NCBI GenBank assembly: GCA_965603515.1
Contig: CBFDDH010000007.1
Location: 1,231-65,230, forward strand
Length of the DNA: 64,000 nt
Source of the DNA: an uncultured bacterium
Lineage (GTDB): Bacteria > Hydrothermota > Tepidihabitantia > SM23-42
Direction: 5' to 3'
In this document: one piece after another, positions 2,605 through 60,157 of the stretch
How the letters are laid out: each line of letters begins with the position of its first letter
How positions within the stretch are numbered: the stretch's first letter is position 1
Position numbers and translations under genes: made by a program
The notes under the pieces: model-generated
Databases searched by the model: none
The model's input: the letters and a program-made list of their open reading frames with translations, nothing else
Told to the model about the DNA's origin: nothing

Positions 2605-4632
2605 TTATTCTTTAAGGCTATTAATTGCTTTCTGAAAGTCCTTTAAATCAATAGGTACGAGCTTAATCGATGACAAGAATTCAAGAAATCCTTCAATGTC
2701 CAGATTCAAATAGTGATCTTCGATCTGCATATCAATTGGCAGGTCATAAAGGTAGGCGCCGCTGCCCAAGGCGTCTTCAAGTCTGGCGATATTTCTTCTG
2801 ATCACTTTCCTTATCGCTTCCTTTTCAGGTATTGGAAAGGCACTACCAGCCAATATCTGGTGGTTCAGGATCAACATTTTACCCTCAGCATCCAGCGCAT
2901 CCTGACTTTGTTCAGAAAGTGCATCAGCAATGATAAACCCGTACAAGTGCCCAAGCAAATGCAGAATATATGTATTACCACGATCAAAAGTTATCGGGAA
3001 TTCCATCACGCCCATATCTGGACAGATGCGCTGTTTCAATACCGACGCTAGCATATAGCTATAATTTCCCTCACCTTTTCCTTCAAAGACCTTAGCGACA
3101 GCTGGAGAATCGCCAATACATTTTGCGAGAACTCTTTTTTCCTTTTCCAAAATTCGTACGGTCTCCCAGCAACGACCGCTAAGGATAAATTTTTGCTTAA
3201 GATGGAAAATCCGACCTATGAGTTTATTGGACTCAACACTTATGACGTCATATTCGCCAAACGCCACATCCGCGATGTTCGAATGTATCTTTCCCCAACG
3301 TATCTTCTCTTCAAGTTCATAACCGTCGAAATATATACCTGGTCTGTTCTCTTTCACTTTTCCATCATCGATCAATTTCTTAAATGCAGTTCTTATCTGT
3401 GTTTCAGTATAGACCGGTACTAAGATCCTATATATGCTTTGCAGGGTTGTTCCAATGCGCTGGCGTTGATATAAATAAGAGTAGATCTGCTGCGGTATTA
3501 CTGATAATGAAGGTTGATAGCGTTTCTCAAACAATTGCCCCTTGATCGCACAGTCAAAATAGATCTCAAACAGCATTCTTTCCCATGTATTCGTATAGAT
3601 ACCTAGCGCGAACAACTTGTTGGTACGGCGATTCCCCCGACCTATCCTCTGGAGTAACGAAGAGATATCAAACGGCGGTCGGTAAAGAACCACACAATCC
3701 ACATCACCGATATCGATCCCCAGTTCAAGTGTAGAAGTGGCGCATAAAATGCCGATTTCACCCTGATTCATCCTGTGTTCAACTTCTTCACGCCGCTGTT
3801 TTTGAAGACTCGCATGGTGAACAAATACGGCATCATGGAACGGTGGTCTATTAAATTTCCGGGAGAAGAGTTCAGCCAGACTCCGGGCATTAAAAAAAAT
3901 GAGTATCTTCTTAAACCCCCTTTGCTTTGCTAATCGAAAGACTTTTTGAATAAAATCATCTTGTTCAATCAACTCATACTCTATCTCACGCGTCGATTTC
4001 AAAAAACATACTTTTGCATCATCAAAATAGTGTGCTCCGATATCCATATCGTCAATCGTTGCGGAAAGAGCACAATACTGGAGTTTATCATGGAATTTTC
4101 GCAAACGTTTGAGCAGAACCCTCAACTGGTCGCCGCGCGGCGTATTATCAAGCAGATGTATTTCGTCAAGCACTACCGCACTCAGCGTCTGTAAAACACG
4201 TGGTTTGCGAGCAAGCATCGAATCAAAAGACTCGGGTGTGGTGAGCAAAACTGCAGGCAGATGTTTCAAATCAAGTCGTGGTCGATCACCAGTCTTGCGC
4301 CCCAGTTCTACACCAACATAGGTTACTGGATCGACTAACCTACGAAAGAGATCATTGACAAGCGCTCGGGTTGGCGAAACATAGAGTATCTTCAGCGCGT
4401 TTAAAGACTGCCCCTGGGTATCTCCAAGCATATGTTCTACCAGCGGCGCGATCACCGCCTCGGTTTTCCCGCTCGCCGCAGGTGATATCACTACCACGTT
4501 TTCATGATTTAGAATATGGGGAATAGTCAATTCCTGAATCGGCAAAAAATTCCCAAACCGACTGAAAAACGGCATCCAGGTCCTTCGTAGTCGTCGTTTA
4601 ATATCGTTTGCAGATGTAATGGTCATTATCAT
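2605..4632 (-). CDS. Lhr-like DEAD/DEAH-box SF2 helicase (BrxHI-like)
   Basis: Q motif FLPIQ, ASGKTEA, TTPES, DEIH, SAT, TSTLELGIDIG, QRIGRGNR. Confidence 0.9.
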   Translation of the reverse strand: MIMTITSANDIKRRLRRTWMPFFSRFGNFLPIQELTIPHILNHENVVVISPAASGKTEAVIAPLVEHMLGDTQGQSLNALKILYVSPTRALVNDLFRRLVDPVTYVGVELGRKTGDRPRLDLKHLPAVLLTTPESFDSMLARKPRVLQTLSAVVLDEIHLLDNTPRGDQLRVLLKRLRKFHDKLQYCALSATIDDMDIGAHYFDDAKVCFLKSTREIEYELIEQDDFIQKVFRLAKQRGFKKILIFFNARSLAELFSRKFNRPPFHDAVFVHHASLQKQRREEVEHRMNQGEIGILCATSTLELGIDIGDVDCVVLYRPPFDISSLLQRIGRGNRRTNKLFALGIYTNTWERMLFEIYFDCAIKGQLFEKRYQPSLSVIPQQIYSYLYQRQRIGTTLQSIYRILVPVYTETQIRTAFKKLIDDGKVKENRPGIYFDGYELEEKIRWGKIHSNIADVAFGEYDVISVESNKLIGRIFHLKQKFILSGRCWETVRILEKEKRVLAKCIGDSPAVAKVFEGKGEGNYSYMLASVLKQRICPDMGVMEFPITFDRGNTYILHLLGHLYGFIIADALSEQSQDALDAEGKMLILNHQILAGSAFPIPEKEAIRKVIRRNIARLEDALGSGAYLYDLPIDMQIEDHYLNLDIEGFLEFLSSIKLVPIDLKDFQKAINSLKE

Positions 4633-33426: not shown

Positions 33427-35373
33427 TTGACAAAAGACACTTATACTAATATAATGAACAAAAGAGGAGTCATGAACTTAGCGTTATTATTTTATCTTAT
33501 GGTGGCCATGAACTGCCAGAAATCTCATGTGCAATTAAACGATTCACTTCCCCAGATGCCGGGCTGGCCCAAGGAGCTCGATTGTCAAAGCTCAGTCGGC
33601 GTAACTTTAGCAGATATAAATCAAGATGGTTTTCTGGAAATCTTAGTAGGAACCTATGATGCTACCTATGATACATGTGAGTTTCACGTATGGGATTACC
33701 AGGGCAATGAACTGCCGGGCTGGCCCAAAGTTATTAGGTTGTACGATATACTGGGAAAACCAGCCGTCGCAGATCTTGATCCATCATACCCTGGGCTGGA
33801 AATCATCGTGTCAGATTTCAATTGCAGAATCTATGCCTGGCACAGCGATGGCACAGACGTAACTGGGTGGCCTTATAACGCAGGCATGACCAGTGCTTAT
33901 TGTTCTCCCGCAATATCAGACATTGATCACGATGGAGATCTTGAAGTAGTATATAATTCGCAGAATGGCGTGCATGTCATCAGTCATGACGGCACACCAT
34001 ACCCAGGATGGCCAGTATGGACGAGCAGTGGATATCGTACGCCGTCAATTGCCGATGTTGATCAAGACGGAATCGTGGATATTTGCATACAGGTATTCCA
34101 TGCTCTATATCTTTATGACATTTATGGTAATGTTAAGCCAGGATGGCCCATAATCTTTGAAGAATGGAATTCTGGCAGTTCTTGTCAGCCTGTTTTAGCT
34201 GATCTTGACAATGATAATGACCTGGAAATAATGATGGCATATTACATTCCTGATCCCCCTAATTCTAAAATCTATGTTGCAATTTATCATCATGATGCCA
34301 CGTCTTTTGAGAACTGGCCGCAGGAATTTCCCGGTCCCATGACTTTTGTGACTCCAGTTGTGGGTGACATAGATAATGACGGTGATCTTGAAATATGCGG
34401 CGGCGGTAATGTTGCAGAACCCTGGCCAGGTTTTATGTTCAGACATCACACTGGCGATACAGTTCAGGGCTGGCCACAAGCTGTAGATGCTGCTAGCTGC
34501 ACGCCTATTATATTTGATCTTGATCTGAGCAACAATGGTAAAAGAGAGATCGTTATCAATACTAACAGCAATATGACTAACCAATTCCTCGCCTTTCATG
34601 ACGACGGAACTAATGTTGATGGCTGGCCGCAAACTACTGGCTGTGCTCATCCAAACGCTGCAGCGGTTGGTGATGTTGACAAGGATGGCGACATCGAAAT
34701 CGCGATCGCAGCTGGTGATGGTACGAAAAGATACCCCGTACGTGTGTATCTTTTTACTGTCGAGGGTGTAGAATACCGTCCGTACATGACCGAATGGGGC
34801 TCATGGTTTCATGATAACTGGAACACCGGCTGGTTTCATCCAAAAGCACCGCAAGATGTCAATGCGGTAAGCTCACCAGCTTTCATACGTCTTACCTGGA
34901 CACAAAACACAGAACCCGATATTGCGGGTTACAACATCTACAGAAGCGACAGCAGTGGAGGTCCGTATTCTAAGATCAATAGCTCTATTATCAACGACAC
35001 GGAATACGTCGATATACCACCAGATTCCAATGACTACTTCTATTGCATCACTGCAGAAATCCTGGCACGTACAGAATCTCGTTTGAGCGATGAAGTATCT
35101 GGGCACCTGGGTATAGCTAACAGAAATGTGGATGTGTTTCCGTTCATATCGGCAGGACCTACCCCCTTCACTCAAGCAATAACATTTCATGTCCCTGAAG
35201 GTGAATCAGCGACTATCACAATTTATAAAAGTGATGGGTCTATTGTTGATAAACTGAAGGGGCAAGGAGCAATTCGATGGCATCCTTCACAAGACATATC
35301 CGCTGGTATCTATTTTGTCAAGCTAAAAACAGATAAAGATCTTCTTGAATATAAGATTGTAAAAATTCACTAG
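33427..35373 (+). CDS. Secreted FG-GAP/VCBS-repeat protein with FN3 and C-terminal sorting-type domain (start probably 33454 or 33472)
   Basis: Repeated GWP...DIDxDGxLEI; LTWTQNTEPDIAGYNIYR FN3; AGIYFVKL terminus. Confidence 0.85.
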   Translation: MTKDTYTNIMNKRGVMNLALLFYLMVAMNCQKSHVQLNDSLPQMPGWPKELDCQSSVGVTLADINQDGFLEILVGTYDATYDTCEFHVWDYQGNELPGWPKVIRLYDILGKPAVADLDPSYPGLEIIVSDFNCRIYAWHSDGTDVTGWPYNAGMTSAYCSPAISDIDHDGDLEVVYNSQNGVHVISHDGTPYPGWPVWTSSGYRTPSIADVDQDGIVDICIQVFHALYLYDIYGNVKPGWPIIFEEWNSGSSCQPVLADLDNDNDLEIMMAYYIPDPPNSKIYVAIYHHDATSFENWPQEFPGPMTFVTPVVGDIDNDGDLEICGGGNVAEPWPGFMFRHHTGDTVQGWPQAVDAASCTPIIFDLDLSNNGKREIVINTNSNMTNQFLAFHDDGTNVDGWPQTTGCAHPNAAAVGDVDKDGDIEIAIAAGDGTKRYPVRVYLFTVEGVEYRPYMTEWGSWFHDNWNTGWFHPKAPQDVNAVSSPAFIRLTWTQNTEPDIAGYNIYRSDSSGGPYSKINSSIINDTEYVDIPPDSNDYFYCITAEILARTESRLSDEVSGHLGIANRNVDVFPFISAGPTPFTQAITFHVPEGESATITIYKSDGSIVDKLKGQGAIRWHPSQDISAGIYFVKLKTDKDLLEYKIVKIH

Positions 35374-36136: not shown

Positions 36137-38254
36137 ATGAAATACATCATAGTCATGACTGTTGTGGTCGCCAGCTTCATTTTTGCCGATAATCTCGTAA
36201 CCAACGGCGATTTTGAGCAGGAGCTGACCACCGGATGGTTAGAGTATTCTGGCGGGATTACTGATTCAATTACACGTGCCGCAACCTATGATCCTGACCC
36301 GGATTACGAGGCGTTCGTGTATCGCGCATCAGAGGGTGGTTACAGCAAATTATATCAGATAATTGATATCCCCTCTACGGATCTTGATTTCTCAGTGAAT
36401 GCGAAACTATATGCATATGATAATCACACCAGTGCGTGGACTGGCGCAAGCGTAATGATATCATATCTTAATAACAGTGGTTCTGTGTTGGGAGCTACCA
36501 GGATCTGTGCTCGCTCCACTCAGTGCCCATGGAATAATTCATCTACAATGCATATCATAGCGGCTGTTGACTCATTCTGGCACAACTACTCATTCAATAT
36601 CGAAACAGAACTCGCAAACCTCTCTGCTGTGAATCCGACAGATGTGAAGAAAATAGAAATAGCTCTGTTCGATTCAACTTATCATTGCTGAGGGGCGACA
36701 GAAACGGCAAAGGTCTTTGCCGATGATGTCGATCTTGATTTTACTGTAACGGGTGTATATCTTGCTTATCGCGATGATACAATAGATGATCAAAGTGGTA
36801 ACAATAATGGCGTGCTTGATCCGGGTGAAACGGCTGACATAAGTGTCCGTATCAAGAATTTTGGTGACCAGACCGCCACAAATGTATCAGGGACGCTCAG
36901 GACTTCATCTCCAGATATTACCATCAATGATGACTACGGTTACTGGGGGACAATTGCGCCAAGCGATAGCGTTGAGAATACAGCAAATCCATTCAATGTA
37001 ACAGCTAATGGCTCAAGCTCTGCTGGAACAGTTGTCGATTTTGAACTGGAAGTGACTGATACTGACAGATACACAGATACCCTGTACTTCAGTATCATCA
37101 TAGGTGGTGAAGGATTCGATTATGTTACCCATAACTGCGGTAATGTAAAACTCACGGTGACAAGGTATGGCACGTTTGGATACATGTCTGCTTTTGCACC
37201 CAATCCTGGAGACGGTTTCTGTTATCCCATAACAAGTAATAGCCACTTGTTCATAGGAACGTTCGCCGCCGGCAATAGTGCGGCGTACTGTGTTGACCGT
37301 TTCTTTAAAGGTGGTACAGATGACGACGACTGGCATACCACAGGTGTTCCTGACGGTATGGTAAGGATGTTTGAACCTGGTCCTGATGATTGGGATGAAT
37401 ATGCAACGGCACATTTTGATGACGCCGGACACGCTTCTCCACAGGATTTAGTAGTTGAACATCACTCCTGGGCATGGGATGATGCAAATGCAAATGATTT
37501 TGTAATTGTCAAATTCATATTACGTAATGAAGGGAGCACAACACTGAGTAATCTCTATGCGGCCACGTTCATGGATTGGGATGTCGGAACTGCAACAAGC
37601 AATCAGGGTTCATCTGATGCGGCGCGAAATTTAACCTGGCTATACCAAAATACACCGTATGTAGGCGTAGCTATCCTCGATCCGCCACGAACCACAACTG
37701 CGGCAAATCTTTCATTGGTTAGCCATAAAGACTATGTTTATCCGCTTAATGGCTTACCAGATAGCGTGATGATCCAGTTTATGGATGGAACAATTCAACA
37801 AGCGACCACAGATACTATTTATGATTGGTCAGCATGCAACTCATCAGGTCCATTTACACTTGCGCCTACAGACACATTTACTGCTGCCTTTGCAATCCTG
37901 GGCGGGGATAATCTCAGCGACCTTCAGGAAAATGCTGATACTGCTTACAATCGTTACTGGGGTAATATCGGAACCGAAGAGTGGAGTACTCCATCCCCTG
38001 CAAATATCAGTCTATATCCAGCGATCTCTCATGGTAAAGCCTACACAATTGTGTACAGCATGTCAGTTGAAACACCTGTACATGTGAAAGTGTATAATAC
38101 AGTTGGTCAACTATTAAAAGAACAGGACTTTGGTAGAATATCAGGTGCAGGCGAATTAAAACTGGATATCTCTCATTTTGCTCAGGGTGTGTACTTTGCT
38201 CAAATCGAATATGGGAATACGAAACAGACTTCAAAAATCATCTGGTTAAAATAA
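36137..38254 (+). CDS. Secreted jelly-roll/Ig-like protein with C-terminal sorting-type domain; one 705-aa ORF if TGA 36689-36691 is decoded (putative selenoprotein, motif HC-U-G)
   Basis: Track ORFs 36137..36691 and 36812..38254 share a frame; the 40 intervening codons are open; SECIS-like hairpin follows. Confidence 0.8.
36696..36731 (+). promoter_or_regulatory. SECIS-like stem-loop
   Basis: CGACA/TGTCG lower stem, CGGCAAA/TTTGCCG upper stem, GGTC loop 20 nt after TGA. Confidence 0.75.
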
Positions 38255-41267: not shown

Positions 41268-42467
41268 TTACAGAATTATTAGTTTCTTTGTCATTGTTGT
41301 CGTATTTACTCTGAGTCTGACAAAATAAATACCTGAAGTAACGCGCCCCTTTTCCCAGACGTGTTCATGCATACCTACATCTTCAGATTGACTGACCACA
41401 ACATCAATCAGCCTGCCATCTGCAGAATAAATTTCTACACTAACCGGGGTGATTTCTGTCAGTGAATATCTTATGTGCACGATTTCTTTTGTCACATTAG
41501 GAGTAACCGCGAAGTTAGAGATTATAGTCTGCTCTGTTTCTTCCACACCCGGATTAAACGCGTTCTGGTAGTATCTAATATAGCCATCAAAATCACTCGT
41601 TAGGATATCGACCGCACCATCTCCATTGTAATCTATAAAGAAAGGTCTATTGGCTTGATTCCCACCAATGTAGGAACCGCCTGATACCTTTAATGTATCA
41701 CGAACATTGAATATTGGACTGGCATTTGTCCCGACATTCTTGTAGAAGTAAATGTATGTATATTGATCGCCCAAGATAAGATCTTTTAGCCCATCGCCAT
41801 CAAGATCGCAGATCCTCGGGGTAGCTCGATAATGATAGATCGGACTACCACCGCAGTTAATATAACTGAACGTAGTGAAGACAGGGTTCGCATTGGTGCC
41901 TTGGTTAAGATAAAGCCTAACTGTTCCCGTACCAGATTCTGATCCTATTATCAGATCTTTTTTACCATCTTCATTCCAGTCTACCACATCGGGATTAGCA
42001 TTGTTACCCACATCGATCTTTATACCATTTGCCCGCACTGTATCCAACAATGTTAAACCACGAGCTTCCTCTAGATACAACATGGTATAACCGTTTCTGT
42101 CACCGACAAGAATATCTCTTTGTCCATCTTCGTTCCAATCGCACACGGCGATCGCTGAGCCCTGACATCAGGACGCATAGACGGAAATGGGAGATCCGTC
42201 GGCCTGCAAATACTGAAATGAGATGTATGAAGGATCCTCATTTGTCCCGTAATTTTTATAGACACGGACATAGCCAGAAGAATACTGGCCTGTGACCAAA
42301 TCCTTTACATTATCACCATCCCAGTCATAGTAAAATGGAGAGCCGTACCAGGTTACATCGATTATACTCCCATTTGCCAATACATACTCGCCAGTTTCAA
42401 AAACCGGCGTCTGTGCGTGTACTGCAAAGAGAAAACCGATGATTAGTATTGCACATGCAAGTCTCAT
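41268..42467 (-). CDS. Secreted FG-GAP repeat protein with C-terminal sorting-type domain; one 399-aa ORF if TGA 42168-42170 is decoded (putative selenoprotein, motif AS-U-C)
   Basis: Two track ORFs in the same frame; sequence reads ISVYAS*CQGSAIAVCDWNEDG, placing the TGA inside an FG-GAP repeat; GGAGGAG RBS before ATG 42467. Confidence 0.8.
42136..42154 (-). promoter_or_regulatory. SECIS-like stem-loop
   Basis: CGATCGC-CGTGT-GCGATTG; loop 20 nt after TGA. Confidence 0.65.
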
Positions 42468-42676
42468 ATGTTCTCCTCCTTTCTCTACTATAATCATATA
42501 TAAATAGAGTAATTTGTCAAGAGACTTAAGTGCATATCGGCAAAAGCAAGCAGGACTTAACAATCCGGCGTCAAGAGATTGACAATGAATTTAATACATA
42601 AAGAAACCCCTTTGTGAACCTTGACTTTTTACTGAATATTACTATAATACACACTTAACATAAAAGGAGGTATTAT

Positions 42677-44369: not shown

Positions 44370-46631
44370 CTATTTTACGAGTATCAGTTTTTCCAGGTAG
44401 TCTGTATTTTCAGTTTTGAGTTTGCAGAAATAGATACCAGCCGAGACTCTATTATCTTTCCCATCAAAACCATCCCATGAGATTTTGTGCGTTCCAGCCT
44501 GTTTGATATCATTAATGAGATTCTTAACCAATCTGCCCTGAATATCATAGATAGACAGTTCGACTGCTGTTTGTCTGGTCAATTGAAAATTCAGTACTGT
44601 CTGCCCTTTTGCCGGATTGGGTTTTGCGAAGAAAACAAACCTACCGATAGATTCTTCTTTGCTTTCTTCAGCGCCAACCAGAAGTGACCAACGGTATGTA
44701 CTACTACCATTTGTACCGGCAAAAATGTAGTTATTAGGATTAACATCAAGGCAATTGATATTCATTACGTCAAGCCCATCGTTCATCGACTCCCACGAAC
44801 TGCCATTATTCGTACTGCGGTACACGCCGTTGCTATAGGTTCCAGCATATATCATCGTGGCATCTGTAGATGTATTATCAATAAGGATTGTATTGGTTCG
44901 GCCACCGCTGAATCCAGTAGTCGCCCATGTCGATCCACTGTCTGTTGATTTATACAGGTTGATCGATGTTCCCGTATACATAATATTTGTATTGTCAGGA
45001 TCAACTACCAGGGCATAGACATAACCAGACAGACCAGTAGTCGGTAATTTTGTCCAGTTACTTCCACTATCAGTCGTTCGGTATATCGCTGAACCGCTTT
45101 CATAACCACCTGCGTACACGATATTCGAATTGCCAGGATCCATAGCCATGGCGTATAAATATCCAGTGCTCGAGCCAATCGTGTACCGCGTCCAACTGTC
45201 TCCTGTATTGGTAGTCTTTGAGACTGACATCTTATACAATGAATCACCGGGGTCGTAATAGCGTCCACCACACCAGAATATCGAATTGTTGCTGTGGTCA
45301 CAAATAAAATCTCCACCATCCGCATAGTAAAGGTCTTTGACGTTCCAGACGGACCCGCCGTCTGTGCTCAAGTAGAGCTCTGAATTGCCTCAGCCCGAGC
45401 CCTCAAAACCAAAAACAAGATCCGGGTCAGTATTGTGTACGCCAAAAGCACACAGCGCGCCGCAGGTTGAAGGCGTCGGCAGCAGGTCCCAGGCAGAACC
45501 GTTATCAGTTGTCTTATAGACACCAACATTTTCAAACTCTGTATACAAGGTTGCTGGTGATGACGGAGCAAGACCGATATCATTTATTTCTCCAAGGTAC
45601 ATTCCGTTTATCGCAGCAGCCCATGTCGTACCCATGGTTGTGGACTTGTAACATCCCGCGTTATTACCAACATACACATTTGAAGTACTAACCGGGCTGA
45701 TCGCTAAGCCCCAAAAGTAGCTACCATCAAGCCCTGAACTAAAAGAAGTCCAGGTAAGCCCAGCATCGGTGCTCCGGTACACTGAAGAATATGCAGTTGA
45801 AAACACAAGATCCGGATCGAGTGATGAGGTTGCCATACGGTAATTATAGAAGTATGTGGAAACCTTCGTCCATGAACCTCCATTGTCAGTCGAACGATAG
45901 ATACCATCAGTGTAAGTACCTGCGTACACGATATTCGAGTTGGTCGGATGAACGGCCATTGAATAAGTATAGTAGCCTGACGTAGCTGCCCAGGTAACAT
46001 CAGTGAAGTTCGAACCGCCGTCAGTTGATTTGAAAACTCTGGGATAGTATGTCGTAGTGACATACTCAGACCCGCCCACGAATATGGTATTCGGTGATGA
46101 CGGATCTATTGCCACACACCAGCCATAGCAATAACTGCCATTACTGAGAACAGTGGTCGTGGTCCATGTCGAACCGCTGTCTGTGCTCTTTATGAATACC
46201 ATATCGTAAACACCAGAGGCAATATATTTCCGACCTGCGCCCACGATAATAGATGGGTCAGCCGGATGCACGGCAAGACCATAAACATAGACGCTTGTTA
46301 CAGTCCCAGATGTCCACGTCGCACCATTGTCAGTCGATTTCCAGACGCGACCATAGTAACCTGAGTATAGATTATCCGATGGGTCAATAGCCATACAATA
46401 GTTGTAACCATTATATGAACCGGTCCTTGTCCATGAGGCACCGGCGTCGATTGATCTAAAAATCTTGCAGGGATACGAATACGAAGCGGCATAGAGAATA
46501 TTCTCATTACTCGGTGAAACCACGACTGAACGGATATTCCCACCTGCAGGTCCAATCGCTTCCCAAGCTCCATATGAGAGGGCACATAAACAAATGAGTG
46601 TTACTACAACTAATACTTTTTGCATAAGCAT
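44370..46631 (-). CDS. Secreted BNR/Asp-box beta-propeller protein with FlgD-Ig/sorting-type C-terminus; one 753-aa ORF if TGA 45390-45392 is decoded (putative selenoprotein, motif SG-U-G)
   Basis: Two track ORFs in the same frame; reads FGFEGSG*GNSELYLSTDGGSVW, so the TGA is inside a blade; many S-T-D-x-G-x-x-W repeats. Confidence 0.8.
45346..45364 (-). promoter_or_regulatory. SECIS-like stem-loop
   Basis: Perfect 7-bp CAGACGG-CGGGT-CCGTCTG; loop 32 nt after TGA. Confidence 0.7.
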
Positions 46632-58784: not shown

Positions 58785-60077
58785 CTAACGAACTTTGACT
58801 ATCTTTTGCATTATTTTGCCGTCTATCTCAATAAAATAAATGCCGGGCTGTACGTGCAAAACATCGATCTGTCGCCCGGTGATATCGTAGACATCACACT
58901 TCTTACCGGCAGGTAAGTACAACGGTCCGCTGATTATTGTAGCATGGAAGAATTCGTTATCTTGCCAAAAACCTGGTGTCTGTTCTACACCGAGTTGAAT
59001 ATCCAAATTACCAAATATATCATAGTTACCCCCGCAGAATTGTTGCCAGGCCACCAAAGACTCAGCATTACCGATCGCCAAAGACGGGAAATCGCGGGTG
59101 CAACTTACTGTATCTGAAATCCGGAAGTTGCTGCCAACAAGTTCCCCTGACATTGATACGCGCTGGCCAAAAATGGCGCAGTCCTGGCTCCACACCACAA
59201 GATAAAAACTATCACCAGCGCAGACGCGTGCTCCGTATTGATAGGGAGAATCATCTGCAATGGCGATAGCAGCGCCGATCAGATCGCCATCTACTGAAAC
59301 GAGCTGTCCATACACATCATCATCATAGTATGGTGACGGCTCGTTCCAAACAACCAGATAACTACTATCACCAAAAGCAATATCCGGGTCTAATAGGGCA
59401 TCCTCTGACAATACTCTGATGACAAACTCATGATCTTCAGGCTGACATTCAGAGTTTATGAATCGACCGAAAAGACCAGCTGGGTTATGGTTATAGTTAT
59501 ACCAAACCGCAAAATACCGCTCACCATCAAAAGCTACGGCTGGTCGGTATTCACAATAAGCCCCCATGCCAAAAACCACACCAGAATCAAGAACTGCGCC
59601 GTCAGGGGTCACACGCGCTGCCTGAACCTTGTATTCACCGCCAAAAGTACCGTCTGACCAGACTACCAGGTAATTATCACCACCAAAAACGATATCTGGT
59701 TCGCGCGAGACTTCGCTATCAGCTTTCACAAGTATCGTGTTTAGCATCTGAAGCTCTGGAGTGACCCGCACCCCGATTATATTTCCGATATTTCAACAAC
59801 CGTAGCGGAAAACAAATAGAAGGTTCTGTCCATCATAGGCAGTACGGATACCGTATGTTGAATACCCTTGATAAAAGAATACGCCGGTCGAGTCAATCAC
59901 CGTGCCGTCTGGTTTCACGCGTGCACCATAAATTGACATTGACTGCCGGAAATCTGACCAGAACACATAATATAAACTGTCAACAAAGATAACACTTGGC
60001 TGAAATTGAGATTCCGAGTGTCCACATATAGTGAAATCAGCATTTATAAAAACTAAACATAAGCTAAGTAGAAACAT
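58785..60077 (-). CDS. Secreted beta-propeller-like repeat protein with C-terminal sorting-type domain; one 430-aa ORF if TGA 59793-59795 is decoded (putative selenoprotein, motif GC-U-N)
   Basis: Two track ORFs in the same frame; reads FRYGC*NIGNIIGVRVTPE; the repeat unit YLVVW..I.G.RV..DG occurs on both sides; the only signal peptide is upstream of the TGA. Confidence 0.8.
59758..59774 (-). promoter_or_regulatory. SECIS-like stem-loop
   Basis: GGGGTG-CGGGT-CACTCC (one G-U pair); loop 24 nt after TGA and identical to the loop at 45353-45357. Confidence 0.62.
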
Positions 60078-60157
60078 ATTATCCTCGGTTCACTAAATTG
60101 TAACTGCACTAGGAGTCAAGTCAAGAGGGTATGTTTCCTGTTTGATGCTCGAAGAAA

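Follow-up and report, generated by a model that had tools for sequence, protein, structure and literature searches.

The gene described here lies on the minus strand of a 64,000-nucleotide stretch of DNA (hereafter the window) from an uncultured bacterium of the Hydrothermota (contig CBFDDH010000007.1, positions 1,231 to 65,230). It is predicted to encode, as one gene, a secreted FG-GAP propeller protein in which the UGA at 42168-42170 is read as selenocysteine (Sec) beside a cysteine; on the comparative sequence evidence this reading is given a probability of roughly 0.87. Two open reading frames (ORFs), 42168..42563 and 41268..42146 on the minus strand, share the same frame with a single TGA between them. 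In the nearest genome, a Candidatus Stahlbacteria metagenome-assembled genome (MAG; locus L001), tblastn matched residues 1-399 across the TGA with 75% identity, and other loci were matched likewise. The peptide around the stop reads ISVYAS-[UGA]-CQGSAIAVCDWNEDG, giving ISVYAS-U-CQGSAIAVCDWNEDGQR as the predicted Sec-containing peptide, with IIDVTWYGSPFYYDWDGD and IKIDVGNNANPDVVDWNEDG as the counterparts in the sister repeats. The distance from I-x-V to DW amounts to 13 residues in the UGA repeat versus 9 in its sisters, a loop longer by four. A preliminary description of this DNA had reported these repeat sequences, the longer loop and a hairpin loop CGUGU 20 nt past the UGA, and had proposed a vicinal Sec-Cys pair in an integrin-like propeller loop. 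Sequences, loop and hairpin (42136-42154, 7 bp) were recovered as described, and the proposed pair is supported by a TGA at 42 of 42 homologous sites, a covarying hairpin and the adjacency of selD and the tRNA-Sec gene in three genomes.

Conservation of the UGA was assessed in 80 related loci from GTDB species genomes. All six frames were searched for the pattern [any stop]-C-x-G...D-W-N-x-D-G, with any stop codon allowed. Forty-two stop-Cys sites were found; the stop was TGA at all of them and TAA or TAG at none. The sites belong to Stahlbacteria/WOR-3, Aegiribacteria, Fermentibacteria, KSB1, Chitinivibrionales, Phycisphaerae, Planctomycetia, a Kuenenia-labelled MAG, Verrucomicrobiota, Gemmatimonadota and unclassified MAGs, so that the predicted UGA-Cys family is spread over about ten phyla and dozens of clusters, with at most six paralogues in any one locus (L008). 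Beyond the structural FG-GAP motif, only U100, C101 and G103 are conserved in the 42 Sec-type proteins. At the same time TGA serves as an ordinary terminator: 12 long ORFs of the window and 9 of the 42 genes of the family end with it. About 45 long ORFs occur in the window, and just four long reading frames are interrupted by a lone in-frame TGA. Normal termination at TGA, the small number of lone TGAs and the conservation at 42 of 42 sites together were taken to rule out sequencing error, pseudogene and reassigned genetic code alike.

Homologues found by a protein search number in the dozens, with identities from 96% down to about 40%. In nearly all database entries the match is confined to the C-terminal ~73% of the query and the called start is one of several codons just past the UGA, a pattern expected if gene callers read a conserved in-frame UGA as a stop. 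These headless proteins, of about 292, 290, 284 or 271 amino acids (aa), are what speaks for the UGA as a real stop, which would leave either two separate genes, a 99-residue peptide and a 292-residue protein from GTG 42146, or a pseudogene. We regard this explanation as very improbable. The downstream product would have the tail of the type IX secretion system (T9SS) but no signal peptide, no blade 1 and no first strand of blade 2; the called starts lie at non-homologous positions (MCDW.., MRDIL.., MIFVE.., VEEGRG..), and no Shine-Dalgarno sequence precedes GTG 42146. Decay of a pseudogene would not leave TGA as the only stop at all 42 sites in different phyla while both halves stay conserved as protein. 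The database also contains a full-length entry, P0023 (locus L082, 158-1393), in which a Joint Genome Institute (JGI) gene call under code 4 renders the TGA as a false W. This call, together with the Gly that most non-UGA homologues carry at the position, could point to an alternative genetic code with UGA as Trp or Gly (tables 4 or 25). Such a code is hardly credible in view of the termination at TGA and the rarity of in-frame TGAs reported above. To our knowledge the taxa concerned (Planctomycetota, Verrucomicrobiota, WOR-3 and others) are not known for reassigned codes, which was also counted against this explanation.

Reading of the UGA as Sec would depend on a bacterial Sec insertion sequence (SECIS) within the coding region. 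The window hairpin CGAUCGC-CGUGU-GCGAUUG has 7 bp and a free energy (dG) of -8.5 kcal/mol, its loop starts 20 nt past the UGA, and the local minimum free energy (MFE) is -11.9. The bacterial SECIS (bSECIS) model prescribes a loop of 3-9 nt, a stem of 4-16 bp, a G in the first two loop positions, a loop start 16-37 nt after the UGA and an MFE <= -7.5 (PMC13188914, Fig. 2A); the window hairpin agrees with it on every point. Among 2,873 TGA triplets of the window (both strands), 2.4% precede a bSECIS-conforming contiguous hairpin with dG <= -7.5, and 1.7% one that reaches -8.5. Within the family a hairpin with 5-9 bp and a loop start 19-23 nt past the UGA is present at at least 39 of the 42 sites (mean dG -7.84). 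It is absent from this position in ten non-UGA homologues with G/S/T-C (e.g. SGCMGCFPRVVYWDAD; mean dG -1.45). Synonymous recoding with each gene's own codon usage placed 34 of the 42 native sites in the lowest 5% (mean z -2.46). On the codon alignment the stem was paired in 80% of cells, compared to 31-45% with the partner slid by 1-3 columns; the covariation score of 0.284 exceeded that of all slid partners (at most 0.126) and was reached by none of 500 shuffles. Between the window and its closest orthologue (L001) a double change from A-U to G-C has occurred in the stem. Two clades differ in how the stem is built: the window clade uses the peptide AIAVCDW with the stem AUCGC/GCGAU, the main clade PQVVDW with UCCAC/GUGGA or UCCGC/GCGGA, one nucleotide out of register with the former. 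UGA sites and controls could not be told apart by the plain MFE of 36-nt windows, since GC-rich planctomycete sequences fold anyway; a position-restricted hairpin measure and synonymous recoding were used in its place.

Linkage to the Sec machinery was observed in part of the genomes. ARAGORN detected a tRNA-SeC gene (anticodon UCA) in 3 of the 34 UGA-bearing loci (L011, L023 and L036) and in none of the 46 non-UGA loci. In all three, the ORF just 5' of the tRNA gene encodes SelD (TIGR00476; 347, 377 and 250 bits, cut-off 125). The first of two tandem FG-GAP Sec genes in L023 begins 40 nt past the tRNA, and in L011, a KSB1 locus, selD and then tRNA-Sec are followed first by the gene of a BNR/Sortilin-type protein that has an in-frame UGA of its own and then by the FG-GAP gene. 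In L036 the SelD ORF matches the model from position 91 only, the N-terminal part missing from the called ORF, and the FG-GAP genes are separated from the tRNA by an ArsR-rhodanese fusion gene. The presence of a single-copy tRNA gene within 6 kb of an FG-GAP gene in three genomes is far beyond chance and suggests that FG-GAP proteins are a main use of the Sec trait in the organisms concerned. selA, selB and selD have been reported in KSB1 MAGs (PMC9012183).

The sequence does not decide which amino acid is inserted, and the UGA might be recoded without selenium, either by near-cognate read-through (Trp, Cys, Arg) or by a tRNA-Sec-like tRNA charged with Cys. Such Cys-charged tRNAs have been described in some bacteria, and a natural Cys-Cys variant, P0038, indicates that Cys is tolerated at the position. 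SelD, the maker of selenophosphate, next to a tRNA(UCA) and FG-GAP genes in three loci argues for genuine Sec, as does a hairpin that fits the SECIS geometry of the SelB type. Recoding without selenium is therefore considered improbable, though the least so of the alternatives weighed here.

Several observations weigh against Sec at this position. Gly rather than Cys occupies it in 26 of 31 tabulated non-UGA homologues, and P0038 was the only Cys variant found, which is atypical for selenoproteins. No selA, selB, selC or selD was found within the 64-kb window, so the Sec trait of the source organism has to be deduced from relatives and from three other UGA genes in the window. The hairpin of the window is by itself not significant, since 12% of its synonymous recodings are as good; its significance thus rests on the comparison within the family. 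FG-GAP repeats are prone to fold in general, with 51% of 36-nt windows in non-UGA blades reaching <= -7 kcal/mol, and the hairpin persists in the two closest non-UGA relatives, the Cys-Cys variant P0038 and an E-T paralogue in locus L004. RNAalifold returned no consensus structure from the MAFFT codon alignment, an outcome of the 1-nt shift between the two clades; pair counting on the named structure was used instead. No Rfam family was detected at 42050-42220 in a permissive scan, and a scan of the whole window at gathering threshold gave tRNA-Val only.

Folding of other blades and retention of the hairpin without UGA would also be expected if the hairpin were a mere by-product of the conserved FG-GAP peptide (x-P-x-V-V-D-W) without a role in decoding. 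We give this little credence. Recoding that preserves the peptide mostly removes the hairpin, two different peptide motifs build the stem at the same distance from the UGA, and the ten homologues lacking it have very similar peptides, e.g. FPRVVYWDAD. The three controls, i.e., non-UGA homologues, recoding and pair counting, show that the hairpin is more than a consequence of the encoded peptide. Across all loci, non-UGA blades encoding x-P-x-V-V-D-W often form similar hairpins through pairing of CCA/CCG with GUG/UGG. The FG-GAP repeat may in this way be predisposed to the evolution of a SECIS, a possible explanation for the origin or spread of Sec in the FG-GAP family.

The residues in relatives bear on the origin of the Sec-Cys pair. 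In distant non-Sec homologues the Cys is nearly invariant, and about a third of the Gly-Cys cases are GCxGC, a CxxC motif. A representative search, whose best matches were mostly giant multi-repeat proteins, was used just to tabulate the residue before the conserved Cys. The same long loop and the Cys occur in non-Sec homologues, hence both are ancestral to this blade. The conserved Cys is paired with one of two residues, Sec at -1 or Cys at +3. We infer that Sec replaces Gly, a change from GGA to UGA that takes a single base. An Aegiribacteria MAG (L004; 6295 and 7719) carries tandem paralogues with PYG-U-C-TGATN and PYG-E-T-TGATN and an almost identical downstream hairpin; in the E-T paralogue Sec and Cys are lost together and the hairpin has outlived both. 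The preliminary description had viewed the pair as grafted on the surface of the propeller, but the loop is not specific to Sec proteins: non-Sec homologues share it together with the Cys and usually have Gly at the Sec position. It had suggested a look for CC, UC and CU at this loop, and all three exist, UC at 42 sites, CC in P0038 and C-U within GCUG in L058. Loss of the hairpin along with the UGA, the other point to be checked, is seen in the ten distant non-UGA homologues but not in the Cys-Cys variant or the E-T paralogue. The preliminary description had further held that non-Cys residues in homologues, or a hairpin not conserved alongside the UGA, would refute its proposal; the former do occur, mostly as Gly, although we judge that test too strict, and the latter is contradicted by the hairpin at at least 39 of 42 sites.

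Three more secreted repeat proteins of the window contain one in-frame TGA each, and each TGA is followed by a qualifying hairpin, compared to 2.4% of the window TGAs overall. From these sequences the source organism appears to decode Sec in other genes, too. The protein at 36137-38254 (plus strand) has a T9SS tail and an N-terminal part without a Pfam match; the TGA stands in the context DSTYHC-U-GATETAKVF and is followed by a predicted 7-bp hairpin that is textbook-like for a bacterial SECIS. The protein at 44370-46631 (minus strand) consists of BNR/Sortilin-type repeats with a T9SS tail (context GFEGSG-U-GNSELYLSTDGGSVW, hairpin dG -10.9). Both L001 (at nt 3077) and L011 (at nt 3389) retain its UGA motif, the gene being flanked in L011 by selD-tRNA-Sec on one side and the FG-GAP gene on the other, and the protein probably represents a second uncatalogued family of secreted selenoproteins. 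The protein at 58785-60092 (minus strand) has repeats of the form DGxNYLVVW...DIYGARVxxxGxVLD with the context FRYGC-U-NIGNIIGV; in L001 only paralogous repeats of it were found, with no UGA at that spot. Three of the four window hairpins, including that of the FG-GAP gene, share the loop form C-G-N-G-U.

The features of the FG-GAP gene, the residues at the Sec position of relatives, the loci linked to Sec machinery and the other in-frame TGAs are compiled in the table. Pfam PF13517 matched the window protein in five stretches (E 4.5e-23, 82 bits, cut-off 26.9). The C-terminal domain scored 38.7 bits for TIGR04183 (cut-off 23) and 33.3 bits for PF18962 (cut-off 27). A comparable hydrophobic leader is present at the N-terminus of 42 of 42 Sec-type family members. 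With a type A sorting domain and an N-terminal leader visible in its sequence, the window protein is a predicted T9SS cargo. A second FG-GAP/T9SS protein of 648 aa is encoded in the window at 33427-35373 (plus strand) without an in-frame TGA; its repeats are of another subtype, GWP...D[IL]D.DG.

Table. Predicted features of the FG-GAP selenoprotein gene and its relatives, and further in-frame TGAs of the window (window positions, unless a locus is named)
Feature	Location	Strand	Remarks
FG-GAP propeller selenoprotein gene, complete, 399 residues	41268..42467	minus	ATG 42465-42467, Sec-UGA 42168-42170, TAA stop 41268-41270
Shine-Dalgarno sequence GGAGGAG, 5' of ATG	42473..42479	minus	direct sequence reading
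N-terminal signal peptide MRLACAILIIGFLFAVHAQ (predicted)	42411..42467	minus	hydrophobic leader, sequence features
Five FG-GAP/VCBS repeats, each with DxDxDGxxD loop	41553..42389	minus	PF13517
In-frame UGA, predicted selenocysteine 100	42168..42170	minus	TGA at 42/42 homologous sites
UGU codon, Cys101, vicinal partner of Sec100	42165..42167	minus	Cys in all 42 Sec-type sequences
SECIS-type hairpin CGAUCGC-CGUGU-GCGAUUG	42136..42154	minus	inside A-I-A-V-C-D-W codons, innermost strand of blade 2
T9SS type A sorting domain, C-terminal, residues 321-398	41274..41507	minus	TIGR04183 and PF18962
Residues U-C at Sec position	42 sites		
Residues U-C-C	L012 (6297)		hairpin follows
Residues G-C-U-G	L058 (6240)		identical to thioredoxin reductase motif; hairpin follows
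Residues U-M	L020 (6258)		hairpin follows
Residues U-G	L056 (2975)		hairpin follows
Residues C-C (TGT-TGT)	P0038		natural Cys-Cys variant; sole Cys variant found
Residues E-T	L004		tandem paralogue
selD and tRNA-Sec directly 5' of one or two FG-GAP Sec genes	L023 4850-9295; L036 633-9102; L011 488-5969		
In-frame TGA in gene 36137-38254	36689-36691	plus	YHC-U-GAT, loop GGUC, 20 nt spacing
In-frame TGA in gene 44370-46631	45390-45392	minus	GSG-U-GNSEL, loop CGGGU, 32 nt spacing
In-frame TGA in gene 58785-60092	59793-59795	minus	YGC-U-NIG, loop CGGGU, 24 nt spacing

The structure was modelled on the natural Cys-Cys homologue P0038 standing in for the window protein. AlphaFold2 yielded five four-stranded blades (pLDDT 87, pTM 0.82), and Foldseek matched this model to the propellers of integrin alpha, CRTAC1, the BBSome and KICSTOR with a TM-score of about 0.4. 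The five blades of the model against seven in integrins probably explain the low TM-scores to all solved FG-GAP propellers. The Sec-Cys pair is predicted to sit where the last strand of blade 1 connects to the innermost strand of blade 2. The corresponding connection of integrin-type propellers is located on the face opposite the calcium loops, and a surface position of the pair is plausible from topology.

During translation, a ribosome arriving at the UGA would meet the hairpin with its loop 20 nt downstream, which would recruit SelB-GTP-Sec-tRNA(Sec), and Sec would be inserted in place of termination. Under limiting selenium or Sec machinery, translation would end after a fragment of 99 residues. 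The full product would carry the vicinal Sec100-Cys101 pair in the long connection into the innermost strand of blade 2 and would presumably be exported by the Sec/T9SS route. By analogy, Sec100-Cys101 may be a redox-active selenenylsulfide or a soft-ligand site for metal, sulfur or selenium at the cell surface or in the medium, an assignment we offer tentatively and at somewhat less than even odds; this chemistry is suggested by the GCUG variant, the CxxC of non-Sec relatives and the fact that the E-T paralogue has lost U and C together.

Proteins of this kind appear to have escaped notice. No FG-GAP, VCBS, BNR or propeller family is among the 119 families of prokaryotic selenoproteins inventoried in 2026 (PMC13188914, Table 1), the NCBIfam models matched only the T9SS tail of the window protein and no selenoprotein model, and a full-text literature search combining FG-GAP, VCBS, T9SS or propeller with selenoprotein retrieved nothing relevant. 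The recoding mechanism is classical; unusual are the fold, the location, the breadth and the Gly/Sec relationship. This relationship may be the reason why searches for Cys/Sec pairs missed the FG-GAP Sec family, a blind spot that would extend to all families whose non-Sec relatives carry Gly. Gene callers that split members at the UGA have also left hundreds of headless proteins without signal peptide in the databases. If the reading as selenoprotein is true, the use of Sec would extend further both in place, to the extracellular space, and in fold, to an FG-GAP propeller that is secreted through the T9SS and bears a Sec-Cys pair. The window may even offer a view on a broad, unrecognised secreted selenoproteome: cell-surface or exported repeat propellers (FG-GAP, BNR/Sortilin and the two more repeat proteins of the window) with one Sec each in a single loop, encoded sometimes beside selD and tRNA-Sec, overlooked in Cys/Sec-pair searches since their non-Sec relatives carry Gly-Cys or CxxC, and providing an extracellular catalytic or capture site, e.g., for sulfur, selenium or soft metals. 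In that case such proteins would be the first selenoenzymes with a beta-propeller fold. We hold the chances of this wider proposal to be nearly balanced, with doubt slightly prevailing.

Compared to known systems, the family resembles bacterial genes with a SECIS inside the ORF (E. coli fdhF; the consensus of Zhang and Gladyshev, per PMC13188914) in that an in-frame UGA is followed by a stem-loop in the coding region, and other bacterial selenoprotein genes in that selD and selC are linked to it in part of the genomes. The majority of bacterial selenoproteins characterized to date show a thioredoxin-like fold that contains a redox motif (PMC13188914), whereas the window family is predicted to comprise secreted repeat propellers, neither thioredoxin-fold nor molybdopterin enzymes, and its non-Sec homologues have mostly Gly instead of Cys at the Sec position. 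With the Gly-Cys-Sec-Gly centre of thioredoxin reductase it shares a vicinal Cys/Sec pair flanked by Gly and able to form an eight-membered selenenylsulfide ring, and the family member in L058 reads exactly G-C-U-G. Unlike in thioredoxin reductase, the order is usually U-C, and the pair is placed internally in a propeller loop of a presumably extracellular protein instead of on a flexible C-terminal tail. A Pfam search detected no FAD/NADPH (pyridine nucleotide-disulfide) oxidoreductase domain in the window protein, and the likeness, drawn by analogy, is one of chemistry only. Integrin alpha, CRTAC1 and other FG-GAP/VCBS propellers have in common with the window protein the FG-GAP repeats, the DxDxDG calcium-type loops and the propeller fold; we know of none among them that contains Sec. 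The window protein differs from integrin alpha by five repeats in place of seven, by the lack of thigh and calf domains and by a TM-score of about 0.4. Closest in location are the secreted and envelope selenoproteins of PMC13188914 (TonB-dependent receptors of the FCYXU type, the DUF1573 'UGC' protein and multiheme cytochromes), which likewise place Sec outside the cytoplasm in short motifs with a nearby Cys, but have unrelated folds and no sequence similarity to the window protein, for which export by the T9SS route is predicted.

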